From Haliangiales bacterium (GTDB taxonomy: Bacteria > Myxococcota_A > Polyangia > Haliangiales > SHYZ01), in the NCBI GenBank assembly GCA_035259575.1, contig DATFWE010000009.1:29800-93799 (forward strand): a DNA stretch of 64,000 nt, read 5' to 3'. Position numbers and translations under genes: made by a program. Positions 20,196 to 23,572 of the stretch are shown one piece after another. Positions within the stretch are counted from its first letter, which is position 1, and every line of letters begins with the position of its first letter. The notes under the pieces were generated by a model. It was given only the letters and a program-made list of their open reading frames with translations. It was not told the origin of the DNA and made no database searches.

Positions 20196-21626
20196 TCAAG
20201 ATGATTGTTCCAGGAGGCGGCGAAGGATCTCGTTCACCGCCTGGGGGTTGGCCTTACCTCCGGTCGCCTTCATCGTCTGCCCGACGAAGAACCCGAGAAC
20301 ATTCGTCTTTCCGGCGCGGTACTGCTCGACCTGTTTCGGGTTTGCGGCGACGACGGCGCGGGCCGCCTCCTCGATGGCCCCCGTGTCGCGGAGCTGCGTC
20401 AGCCCCTCGCGGGCGACGATGTCGCGCGCCCGCCCGCCCGACTCGATCATCTTGTGGAAGACGTCCTTGGCGATCTTCCCGTTGATCGTGCCGTCGTCGA
20501 CCAGGCGCACGAGCTCGGCGAGCCCGTCGGGCGGCACCGGGCTGTCCTCGGGCTCCTTGCCGAGCCGGTGGAGCTCGCGCAGGAGCTCGGTCATGACCCA
20601 GTTGGCGATCTTCTTGCCGTCGCCGTGCGCCGCCGCGGCGGCCTCGAAGTAGTCCGCGAGCGAGCGCTCCTCGGTGAGGAGCTTGGCGTCGGCGTCGCCG
20701 AGCCCGTGCTCCGCGGCGAGGCGCGCGCGGCGGGCGAGCGGCAGCTCGGGGAGCGCGGCGCGGACCTCGTCGATCCAGGCGTCGGCCACGGCGAGCGGCG
20801 GCAGGTCGGGGTCGGGGAAGTAGCGGTAGTCGTGCGCGTGCTCCTTGCTGCGCATCGACGCCGACGTGCCCTTGTCCGCGTCCCACAGGCGCGTCTCCTG
20901 GACGACCTTGTCGCCGGCCTCGAGGACGGAGATCTGGCGGGCGATCTCGTGCTCGATCGCCCGCTGCACGAACTTGAAGCTGTTGATGTTCTTGAGCTCG
21001 GCCTTGGTGCCGAGCCGCGCCTCCCCCGCCGGGCGCACCGATACGTTGGCGTCGCAGCGGAGCGAGCCCTCCTCCATGTTGCCGTCGGAGATGTCGAGGT
21101 AGCGGACGAGCTGGCGCAGCGCGCGCATGTACTCGGCGGCCTCCTCGGCGGAGCGGAGGTCGGGCTCGGACACGACCTCGACCAGCGGCACGCCGGCGCG
21201 GTTGAGATCGACGAGCGATCCGCCGCCGCCGTGGATGTTCTTGCCCGCGTCCTCCTCGAGGTGGATGCGCGTGAGGCGCACGCGCCGGCGCTCGCCGTGG
21301 AGGACGAGCTCGACGTGCCCGTGCTCGCACACGGGCTCTTCGTACTGCGAGATCTGATAGCCCTTGGGGAGGTCGGGGTAGAAGTAATGCTTGCGGGCGA
21401 AGCGCGAGCGCCGGCGGATCGTCGAGCCGGTCGCGAGGCCGAGGCGGAGCGCGAGCTCGACCGCGCGCCGGTTGAGGACGGGCAGGGCGCCGGGGAGGCC
21501 GAGGACGGGCGGATCGGTCAGCGTGTTCGGCGGCGCGCCGAAGCTCGCCGCGGACGGCGAGAACGACTTCGACGCCGTGTGGAGCTGGACGTGGCACTCG
21601 AGGCCGATGACGGGCTCCCAATTCAT
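20196..21626 (-). CDS. gatB: Asp-tRNA(Asn)/Glu-tRNA(Gln) amidotransferase subunit B
   Basis: MNWEPVIGLECHVQL.., ..RKHYFYPDLPKGYQISQ.., and a C-terminal YqeY-like tail. Confidence 0.95.
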   Translation of the reverse strand: MNWEPVIGLECHVQLHTASKSFSPSAASFGAPPNTLTDPPVLGLPGALPVLNRRAVELALRLGLATGSTIRRRSRFARKHYFYPDLPKGYQISQYEEPVCEHGHVELVLHGERRRVRLTRIHLEEDAGKNIHGGGGSLVDLNRAGVPLVEVVSEPDLRSAEEAAEYMRALRQLVRYLDISDGNMEEGSLRCDANVSVRPAGEARLGTKAELKNINSFKFVQRAIEHEIARQISVLEAGDKVVQETRLWDADKGTSASMRSKEHAHDYRYFPDPDLPPLAVADAWIDEVRAALPELPLARRARLAAEHGLGDADAKLLTEERSLADYFEAAAAAHGDGKKIANWVMTELLRELHRLGKEPEDSPVPPDGLAELVRLVDDGTINGKIAKDVFHKMIESGGRARDIVAREGLTQLRDTGAIEEAARAVVAANPKQVEQYRAGKTNVLGFFVGQTMKATGGKANPQAVNEILRRLLEQSS

Positions 21627-21720
21627 TGTTGCACCGCCCCCTCGCTCCGGCGCGCCGCTCCGGGTCGCTCGGCTGCGCCTCGCTCCAGGGTCGCTCGTTG
21701 GCGCGCCTCCGCTCGGGGGC
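21627..21720. repeat. 94-nt structured junction repeat (gatA|gatB)
   Basis: It fills the intergenic gap exactly and is flanked by TCAT at 21623-21626 and 21721-21724. It shares tgttgcaccgc and the core ggtcgctcggctgcgcctcgctccaggg with the 23191 and 15208 copies. Terminal imperfect inverted repeats lie at 21636-21656 and 21700-21720. Confidence 0.85.
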
Positions 21721-23190
21721 TCATGGGCACGGCCTCCTCGTCGTCCACTCGTTCGCCGCCTCGTACGCGCCGGCGACGCGGAACAGCGTCGGCTCGTCGA
21801 GGGTCCGGCCGATGAGCTGCAGGCCGATCGGCAGCCCGGCGGCGGTGAAGCCGCACGGGACGCTCATCGCCGGCAGCCCGGCAAGCGGGGCGCTGATGGT
21901 GAAGATGTCGGCGAGGTACATCGCGAGCGGGTCGCCGGTCTTCTCCCCCAGCCGGAACGCGGGCGTGGGCGACACCGGCGTCGCCACGACGTCCACCTCG
22001 GCGAACGCGCGCTCGAAGTCGCGCTTGATGAGCGTCCGCACCTGCTGCGCCTTGCGATAGTACGCGTCGTAATAGCCCGAGCGGAGGACGTACGTGCCGA
22101 GCATGATGCGCCGCTTGACCTCGGCGCCGAAGCCGGCCCCGCGCGTCTCGGCGTACATGTCCGCGAGCGCGCCCGCGTCGCCGCGGCGCAGGCCGTAGCG
22201 CACGCCGTCGTAGCGGGCCAGGTTCGACGACGCCTCGGCGGTGGCGACGAGGTAGTAGCACGCGACGGCGTACTCGGTGTGGGGGAGGGCGATCTCGCGC
22301 ACGCGCGCGCCGAGCGTCTCGAGGCCCGCGACGGCCGCCCGGACCGCGCGCTCGACCTCCGCGTCCATGCCCGGGACGAAGTACTCGCGCGGCAGACCGA
22401 CGACGAGGCCGCCGAGGCCGTCGGCGCCGCGGGCGACGTCGTCGCGGTAGCGCGGCACGATCGCCGGGATGGACGTCGCGTCGAGCGGGTCGTGCCCGGC
22501 GATGACCTCGAGGAGCAGGGCGGCGTCCTCGACGGTGCGCCCCAGCGGGCCCACCTGGTCGAGCGAGGAGGCGAAGGCGATGACCCCGTAGCGCGACACG
22601 CGGCCATAGGTCGGCTTCACGCCGACGACGCCGCTCAGCGACGCCGGCTGGCGCACCGAGCCGCCGGTGTCGGTGCCCAGCGACGCGGCGGCGAGGCCCG
22701 CCGCCACCGACGCGGCCGAGCCGCCCGACGAGCCGCCGGGCACGCGCGCGCGGTCCCACGGGTTCTTGCACGGGCGGAACGCCGAGTTCTCGTTCGAGCT
22801 CCCCATGGCGAACTCGTCCATGTTGAGCTTGCCGAGGATCACGGCGCCGGCCTGGCGCAGGCGCGCCACCACCGTGGCGTCGTAGGGCGGCCGCCAGCCG
22901 TCGAGGATGCGCGACCCCGCGGTGGTGGGGACGGCGCGCGTGACGAAGATGTCCTTCAGCGCCACCGGGACGCCGCCGAGCGAGCCCACGTCGTCGCGCC
23001 GGGCGACGGCCCGGTCGATCTCGTTGGCGCGCGCCCGCGCGCCGTCGGCGTCGACGTGGAGGTAGGTGCCGAGATCGCCGTCGAGCGCGGCGATACGGCC
23101 TAGGTGCGCCTCGGCGAGCTCGCGCGCGGACACCTCGCGCCGGCGGACGAGCTCGGCCTGGCGGGCCGCGGGCAGGTAATGGAGGCTCAT
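21721..23190 (-). CDS. gatA: Glutamyl-tRNA(Gln) amidotransferase subunit A
   Basis: Amidase signature [14 protein letters not shown], plus ..[18 protein letters not shown]... The start [15 protein letters not shown] is at 23190. The track ORF extends upstream through the repeat. Confidence 0.95.
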
Positions 23191-23284
23191 TGTTGCACCG
23201 CTCGCGCGCGACGGCTCGGGGCGCCAGGTCGCTCGGCTGCGCCTCCCTCCAGGGGCGCCTCTCTCCTCGCCGTCGCGCGCTCGC
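23191..23284. repeat. 94-nt structured junction repeat (gatC|gatA)
   Basis: Same length, same conserved blocks at the same offsets as 21627-21720, and flanked by TCAT (23187-23190, 23285-23288). The inverted-repeat arms (23200-23215 and 23269-23284) differ in sequence from the other copy but still pair. Confidence 0.85.
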
Positions 23285-23572
23285 TCATTTCTCGATGATT
23301 CGCGGCACGACGAAGAAATCGTCGACGCGCGCGGGCGCGGCGGCGAGCGCCTCGTCGGCGGACAAAGACGGCGCGGCCGCGTCCTCGCGCAGGGGGCAGT
23401 CGAGCGGCACGGCATGCGTCATCGGCTCGACCCCGGTCGTATCCAGGGCCTGCAGCTTTTCGACGTAGGCGAGGATGCTCTGGAGCTCCCCGCGCAGGCG
23501 CTCGGCCTCGGCCGCGCCCAGGCGGAGGCGCGCCAGCCCGGCCAGCTCCTCGACGTCTTCCCGGGTGATCAT
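23285..23572 (-). CDS. gatC: Glutamyl-tRNA(Gln) amidotransferase subunit C
   Basis: 95 aa. [30 protein letters not shown] is the typical GatC pattern. It lies upstream of gatA. Confidence 0.9.

Follow-up and report, generated by a model that had tools for sequence, protein, structure and literature searches.

A palindromic repeat of ~94 nucleotides (nt) occupies both gene junctions of the gatCAB operon in a 64,000-nt stretch of DNA from a Haliangiales bacterium (GenBank contig DATFWE010000009.1, positions 29,800 to 93,799; hereafter, the window). It is proposed, with a probability of roughly 0.6, that this repeat is a non-autonomous mobile element whose phased mini-open reading frame (mini-ORF) would relay ribosomes across the stop/start overlap of the flanking genes. 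The proposal draws chiefly on the phase of the repeat at junctions across its family, and on orthologous junctions that lack the repeat and are simple 4-nt overlaps of the form ATGA or GTGA (RTGA).

The window, which has a G+C content of 71%, contains four element units at three sites, and ~13 further RTGA overlap junctions in it carry no element. The features discussed here are listed by window coordinates:

23572..23285, minus strand: gatC (95 amino acids, aa); the Pfam family GatC is found on the identical protein in contig L001
23288..23187, minus strand: element copy 1 with its mini-ORF (33 codons and TGA), at the gatC/gatA junction
23200..23284, minus strand: imperfect hairpin of copy 1, with variable arms and a conserved core at ~23227-23251
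23191..23199, minus strand: conserved 3′ tail GGTGCAACA, directly 5′ of the gatA start codon
23190..21721, minus strand: gatA (489 aa)
21724..21623, minus strand: element copy 2 with its mini-ORF (33 codons and TGA), at the gatA/gatB junction
21636..21720, minus strand: imperfect hairpin of copy 2, with the conserved core TGGAGCGAGGCGCAGCCGAGCGACC at ~21663-21687
21626..20196, minus strand: gatB (476 aa)
15405..15204, minus strand: tandem pair of 99-nt element units, in fusion phase and not in relay phase
11689..11686, minus strand: ATGA stop/start overlap with no element (CC-ATGA-GCC), terminating a gene for a 1173-aa TPR protein

At the gatC/gatA junction, the gatC stop codon TGA (23287..23285) falls within ATGA 23288..23285. 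The ATG of the copy 1 mini-ORF (23288..23286) overlaps this stop, and its TGA (23189..23187) overlaps the gatA ATG (23190..23188). Similarly, the ATG of the copy 2 mini-ORF (21724..21722) overlaps the gatA stop (21723..21721), and its TGA (21625..21623) overlaps the gatB ATG (21626..21624). TCAT, the complement of minus-strand ATGA, is found at 23285-88, 23187-90, 21721-24 and 21623-26, so that each gatCAB copy spans 102 nt from ATGA to ATGA inclusive and displaces the downstream start by 98 nt, which is 2 mod 3. A frame opened at the 5′ start therefore ends on a TGA that overlaps the displaced downstream start. Recomputed coordinates and translations agree with an earlier, sequence-only reading of this DNA, which had described a 94-nt element, a 102-nt span and a 33-codon ORF, and had given the translations of both copies. 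That reading had also held that each element forms exactly one ORF. The ATG/TGA phasing behind this statement holds, but the absence of in-frame stops has no weight: the GC content of the element is high enough to keep all six frames almost stop-free, which makes an open frame uninformative, and this absence was dropped as evidence for the mini-ORF. Furthermore, because both gatCAB copies are equal in length, their phasing amounts to a single event with a prior chance of 1/3.

A survey of length modulo 3 and of frame in junction copies, set beforehand as a test, covered 17 complete junction sites that were identified from the DNA pattern or by synteny, with ORF-ascertained sites counted separately. 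The outcome favours relay phasing: a mini-ORF, or a chain of mini-ORFs, runs from the upstream stop to the downstream start at 13 of the 17 sites. All 17, together with the ORF-ascertained sites, lie between co-directional genes and in gene orientation. Every complete metagenome copy is located at a stop/start junction, with RTGA...GGTGCAACA-RTGA as its boundaries; on the upstream side, 96-1334 open codons, or an open frame reaching the contig edge, lead to the 5′ TGA, and a long ORF begins at the 3′ RTG. At both sites in L002, a TAG directly precedes the 5′ TGA and produces a 1-nt TAG/GTG overlap.

Ten independent sites (the two gatCAB sites, L002a, L003, L004, L005, L007, L010, L011 and L012) share an RTGA-to-RTGA distance of 98 nt and keep this exact length despite ~20% substitution divergence. 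Several sites of other lengths are also in phase. In L002b, one arm has lost 2 nt and the opposite arm 1 nt, giving a distance of 95 nt; although its core falls in a different reading frame, its ORF ends AVQQ* on the next start. L009 (173 nt), which includes a nested insertion and a relic, stops on the start codon of a trpF-like gene, L093 (152 nt) lies between genes of a mevalonate-pathway operon, and L111 (161 nt), L094 (102 + 98 nt, or 200 nt) and the 23-nt relic in L004 likewise retain the frame. Among the three gatC/gatA relics of relatives, two are in phase: those of L095 (29 nt, encoding MSRRERAVQE*) and L096 (68 nt). The sequence-only reading had allowed that the relay frame might be coincidental or specific to gatCAB, and its recurrence at sites family-wide leads us to reject this fallback. 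The relics in L003 (minus strand, after a cdd-like gene, ~15-45) and L098 (3549-3580) share a common ending, CAACAGTGACTGA, and in both the mini-ORF stop lies 7 nt inside the next gene (GTGACTGA).

Empty sites could be compared with filled ones at three junctions. A scan of reference genomes for GatA returned relatives of 49-64% identity only, and the comparison was instead made using a protein database and contig look-ups. The gatC/gatA junction is a plain RTGA overlap in L097, L109, L110 and the contig of P0017, holds a full copy in the window, and holds relics in L095 (29 nt), L096 (68 nt) and L098 (25 nt). The gatA/gatB junction is empty in L095, L098 and the contig of P0017, and is filled in the window and in L109. 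At the site syntenic to the unoccupied overlap at 11689..11686, L094 carries at least two tandem copies. Because the empty orthologous sites are plain ATGA or GTGA, it appears that the element enters pre-existing 4-nt overlaps and leaves RTGA at each side. The two RTGA are identical in 12/17 cases and differ by A/G in 5/17; this duplication could be a target-site duplication or could be partly borne by the element.

The patchy occupancy among close relatives argues for repeated insertion, mobility, or repeated or precise loss at the same sites. Occupancy does not track GatA identity: the relative at 87% combines a relic with an empty site, and in the one at 79% one site is empty and one filled. 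In the closest relative, L095, the 'empty' gatA/gatB junction (1536-1550) reads ATGACCATGAAATGG, with two ATGA 6 nt apart, which is possibly the minimal footprint of a lost element.

In gene orientation, the element is laid out as RTGAGC, a variable 5′ arm, the invariant core TGGAGCGAGGCGCAGCCGAGCGACC, a variable 3′ arm, GGTGCAACA and RTGA. Alignment of the copies shows the core to be present and conserved in each one. Of the two hallmarks of a MITE, terminal inverted repeats and a target-site duplication, the former are not clear-cut: the outermost ends (GAGC... and ...GGTGCAACA) are not inverted repeats of one another; the long arms are inverted repeats, and their pairing covaries. Both sides have changed in 7/21 consensus pairs, a level that 0/500 shuffles match and that slid controls fall far below. 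The predicted hairpin has a folding energy of -50 to -55 kcal/mol, which against shuffled sequences amounts to just z = -1.6 to -3.6, and covariation is thus the better support for the hairpin. Rfam covariance models gave 0 matches when the window was searched at gathering thresholds and 0 when the element was searched at E<=1. The paired changes are GC<->CG transversions on both sides, nearly without G-U pairs; such swaps fit a DNA palindrome, or a copying mechanism that regenerates both arms, better than selection on RNA folding. In three contigs a second small GC-rich hairpin is nested in the conserved core (54 nt in L093 at ~8530-8583, 63 nt in L111 at ~1040-1102 and 52 nt in L009 at ~123-174), and the site distances of 152, 161 and 173 nt stay 2 mod 3 despite it.

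These arrangements suggest a course of events for the proposed relay. The element would insert into, or survive only in, 4-nt stop/start overlaps of co-directional genes, and insertion would keep the stop codon of the upstream gene and put a new start codon on top of it. A ribosome leaving the upstream gene would then re-initiate on the mini-ORF, melt the GC-rich hairpin while reading 33 meaningless codons, terminate on the downstream start and re-initiate there. In this way, the termination-reinitiation coupling of the operon may outlast the insertion. In one study, ATGA overlaps gave strict coupling in 13/14 gene pairs tested (PMC6728339). Directly after the mini-ORF start, 12 nt are largely engaged in base pairs (unpaired probability 0.15-0.47), and a paired start would presumably hinder a terminating 70S ribosome less than de novo binding of a 30S subunit.

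The relay, first put forward in the sequence-only reading, is thus strengthened by the 13/17 phased sites and by the simple RTGA overlaps at empty sites, but a number of observations weigh against it. Phase is kept in only 5/9 length-variant events free of ORF bias (95, 23, 173, 29 and 68 nt in phase; 198, 97, 25 and 19 nt out of phase), which is suggestive but not significant (binomial p ~0.15). The exceptions are the tandem pair of the window (198 nt, 0 mod 3), L008 (97 nt, 1 mod 3) and the relics in L098 (25 nt) and L003 (19 nt), both 1 mod 3. The shared length of the canonical copies means that their phasing may be one historical accident, with a prior of 1/3. The fusion phase of the window tandem pair is also that of P0131 and P0135. 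Ahead of the downstream start, the element's 3′ arm and tail provide as much complementarity to the anti-Shine–Dalgarno (anti-SD) sequence as is present before the mini-ORF start, and because of this the downstream gene could be initiated independently. The GC<->CG swaps in the stem suggest a constraint on a DNA palindrome rather than on an RNA one. Finally, stable structure directly after a stop codon is reported to insulate against re-initiation and not to favour it (PMC7518266).

Several of these points are shared by an alternative judged unlikely, in which the phasing is a passive by-product. A selfish repeat would target RTGA, purifying selection would spare only those insertions that fall on stop/start overlaps, the length of 98 nt would be an accident of the master copy, and the downstream gene would be initiated independently at the 3′ tail of the element (GGUG-CAACA-AUG), with no relay. 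Anti-SD duplexes are as stable ahead of the 3′ start (-3.5 to -11.3 kcal/mol) as ahead of the 5′ start, and the CAACA spacer is mostly unpaired, as this alternative would have it; a built-in ribosome-binding site in the 3′ tail was itself dropped as a candidate, the accessibility of the tail being variable when flanks are included. The non-significant phase retention of length variants, the one 97-nt copy and two relics out of phase, the tandem arrays in fusion phase and a stem covariation that looks DNA-level are equally compatible with a passive origin. What sets it at a disadvantage is the pattern of lengths that do occur. With a displacement of 1 mod 3, ribosomes from the 5′ RTG would pass the downstream start out of frame; this class is seen at just 3/17 sites, in two of which the mini-ORF ends 7 nt into the next gene. 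Phase is restored by the compensating indels of L002b and in the heavily rearranged L009, L093 and L111. Furthermore, no copy was seen at a non-junction intergenic site among the loci found, although insertions there would be expected to be neutral.

It is also conceivable, at distinctly lower odds, that the hairpin itself is functional as RNA or DNA and the ORF irrelevant, with the structure tuning mRNA stability or processing, or insulating cistrons, like REP/BIME and ERIC repeats or 'ribosome termination structures'. Conservation of the core in all copies would be expected under this explanation, as would the stem covariation (7/21 pairs, 0/500 shuffles, slid controls far lower), and post-stop stable structures are reported to govern re-initiation (PMC7518266). 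Folding energy, however, exceeds that of shuffles only modestly (z = -1.6 to -3.6), no Rfam model matches even at E<=1, and relatives retain relics at gatC/gatA in which the hairpin is entirely lost; the patchy occupancy of the same junction among close relatives is ill-suited to a conserved regulatory role. A functional Arg/Ala-rich small protein encoded by the mini-ORFs is very improbable, even though most copies have an ORF with start and stop and an 11-residue middle segment is conserved. Among aligned copies, column entropy at codon positions 1/2/3 is 0.46/0.46/0.50, with no third-position excess of variation, and synonymous changes make up a fraction of 0.26 of the codon differences in the ORF frame vs 0.23 and 0.18 in the other two. 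Because this variation lacks codon periodicity, the mini-ORF peptide is not under selection, and its conserved segment merely reflects the conserved nucleotide core. The sequence-only reading had called for codon-type and structure-driven variation to be compared; in this comparison the variation has no codon periodicity, and the stems covary. The peptides match no Pfam family, and a profile of the four peptides of the window found 14 matches among 1.84 billion representative proteins. Relic peptides have just 8-23 residues, and L002b reads the core in a different frame, which, together with the missing periodicity, led to the rejection of a small protein.

The relay is thus preferred for single copies, and tandem units in the window follow another phase. 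The sequence-only reading had cautioned that the copies at 15208-15401 do not keep the relay frame. This is correct but incomplete, as these units have a 99-nt period and form an in-frame fusion with the gene downstream. The upstream TPR gene (17747..15402) ends in a TGA that is overlapped by the ATG at 15405, and the frame opened by this ATG crosses both units in frame with ATG 15207 of the downstream gene for a 1173-aa TPR protein (MMALLIALVASTAWA...). The ATGA between the two units has decayed to ACGA. In P0131, which has a prepilin-like leader, and P0135, which has a signal-peptide-like leader, 33-codon units are likewise fused to the downstream gene. All three recognisable genes downstream of fused 99-nt units start with a cleavable-looking leader (Sec-like, prepilin-like and a Tat/Sec-like signal), and the N-terminal extension contributed by fused units might perhaps be tolerated because the leader is removed.

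An ORF that couples a repeat to its neighbouring genes has a precedent in mycobacterial interspersed repetitive units (MIRUs), reportedly described by Supply et al. in 1997. MIRUs insert at start codons, where a -4 spacing couples their internal ORF to the gene; this arrangement likely keeps the effect of insertion to a minimum (PMC12548453, a 2025 review). Their features include direct repeats of a tetranucleotide, sites both filled and empty, inverted repeats that are internal and GC-rich, and ORFs that overlap adjacent genes (PMC3184786). Most MIRU unit sizes are 2 mod 3 (53 bp at 7 and 77 bp at 2 of 12 loci), with in-frame units of 51 or 54 bp in the minority (PMC3558156).

The Haliangiales element resembles MIRUs in each of these respects. 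Both are short (40-100 bp in MIRUs), GC-rich repeats between co-directional operon genes, with internal inverted repeats and tandem arrays. In both, the ends of the ORF overlap the flanking stop and start with -4 spacing, here in both gatCAB copies and at the 13/17 phased sites, and the tetranucleotide direct repeats and filled/empty sites of MIRUs have their equivalent in RTGA on both sides and in the three junction comparisons. The 2 mod 3 and in-frame size classes of MIRUs are paralleled by the 98-nt and 99-nt classes. The differences are that the host is a member of the Myxococcota and not of Mycobacterium, that the unit is dominated by a single long imperfect hairpin, whose 25-nt core is strongly conserved, and that 99-nt tandem units are fused to genes encoding N-terminal leaders. 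No shared sequence is evident, the two families being set apart without a formal comparison to a MIRU consensus. The family has MIRU-type architecture without being the mycobacterial MIRU family itself, given the different host phylum and the lack of evident similarity.

Other known systems share fewer properties with the element. Repetitive extragenic palindromic sequences and bacterial interspersed mosaic elements (REP/BIME) are likewise GC-rich imperfect palindromes with a conserved flanking tetranucleotide and compensatory stem changes, and are numerous and non-autonomous (PMC3184786 and general knowledge). REPs, however, are 21-65 nt long, have a GTAG-type 5′ tetranucleotide, and are extragenic, usually located after genes, present in both orientations and unphased with start and stop codons, whereas the present element is 94 nt, RTGA-flanked, found in one orientation only and situated on start codons, and so falls outside REP/BIME. 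Scanning 29 ORFs of the window with Pfam revealed no transposase, including no REP-associated tyrosine transposase (RAYT; Y1 transposase) gene. Rickettsia palindromic elements also keep open frames that are tolerated in, or at the ends of, coding sequences, as in the fused 99-nt units (PMC3184786), but the single copies described here form a separate mini-cistron between overlapping stop and start codons and are not part of a host protein. Finally, in synthetic bicistronic designs a short leader ORF brings the ribosome to an overlapping start and neutralises inhibitory mRNA structure (PMC12548453); those designs are engineered, and the element is a natural mobile repeat. In the literature searched, no comparable repeat was described for myxobacteria, MIRUs were not mentioned in any ribosome-profiling paper, and there was no further repeat family with an ORF that overlaps the flanking stop and start codons.

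The relay concept is thus already known from MIRUs, and what is new is best read as a second, sequence-unrelated family in Myxococcota, together with a hint of distinct relay and fusion phases. If the relay works, a mobile element can sit nearly cost-free in an essential coupled operon such as gatCAB by supplying its own ribosome hand-over. The idea has so far been based on one family in one genus, and a second phylum would generalise the principle and provide a natural test bed for termination-reinitiation through strong secondary structure. A broader and more tentative view, to which somewhat less than even odds are given, is that the Myxococcota family independently reached the MIRU solution, with 98-nt relay mini-cistrons on the one hand and 99-nt fusion units with later-cleaved leaders on the other, and that relay cassettes are a general convergent strategy for mobile DNA in essential operons.

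The family has a narrow distribution. A frame- and context-blind scan for the core pattern identified 11 loci on 11 soil-metagenome contigs, and no match was present among 185,579 reference genomes, a collection without the source genome and its close relatives. Plasmid and phage BLAST searches gave no element match, and ten loci matched in viral contigs were discarded as chance hits to the 17-base core. Protein searches with a doubled alignment and a profile returned only about a dozen true matches, skewed to fused ORFs; one element-bearing ORF belongs to a metagenome-assembled genome of Haliangiales. GatA relatives of 66-87% identity are, where named, assigned to Kofleriaceae, Polyangia, Myxococcales or Myxococcota. 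Given the few metagenome and protein matches, their absence from these genomes, plasmids and phages, and relatives named as Myxococcota, the family is rare and limited to an uncultured Haliangiales/Kofleriaceae-like myxobacterial lineage.

In practical terms, gene callers will yield spurious mini-genes or N-terminally extended proteins from such elements, and short-read assemblies break at operon junctions. The repeat breaks assemblies right at these junctions: short-read metagenome contigs end inside the element in L001, L002, L094 and L109, and the closest GatA contigs are just 1.8-2.6 kb. L002 also contains an identical 24-nt flank, CGGCCACGATCGGAGGGTGCCCTA (with an SD-like GGAGG and a TAG stop), at 1-24 and 1625-1648, before two different element copies. 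These copies bracket a 508-aa gene, and the shared flank may reflect tandem paralogues or inter-element recombination.

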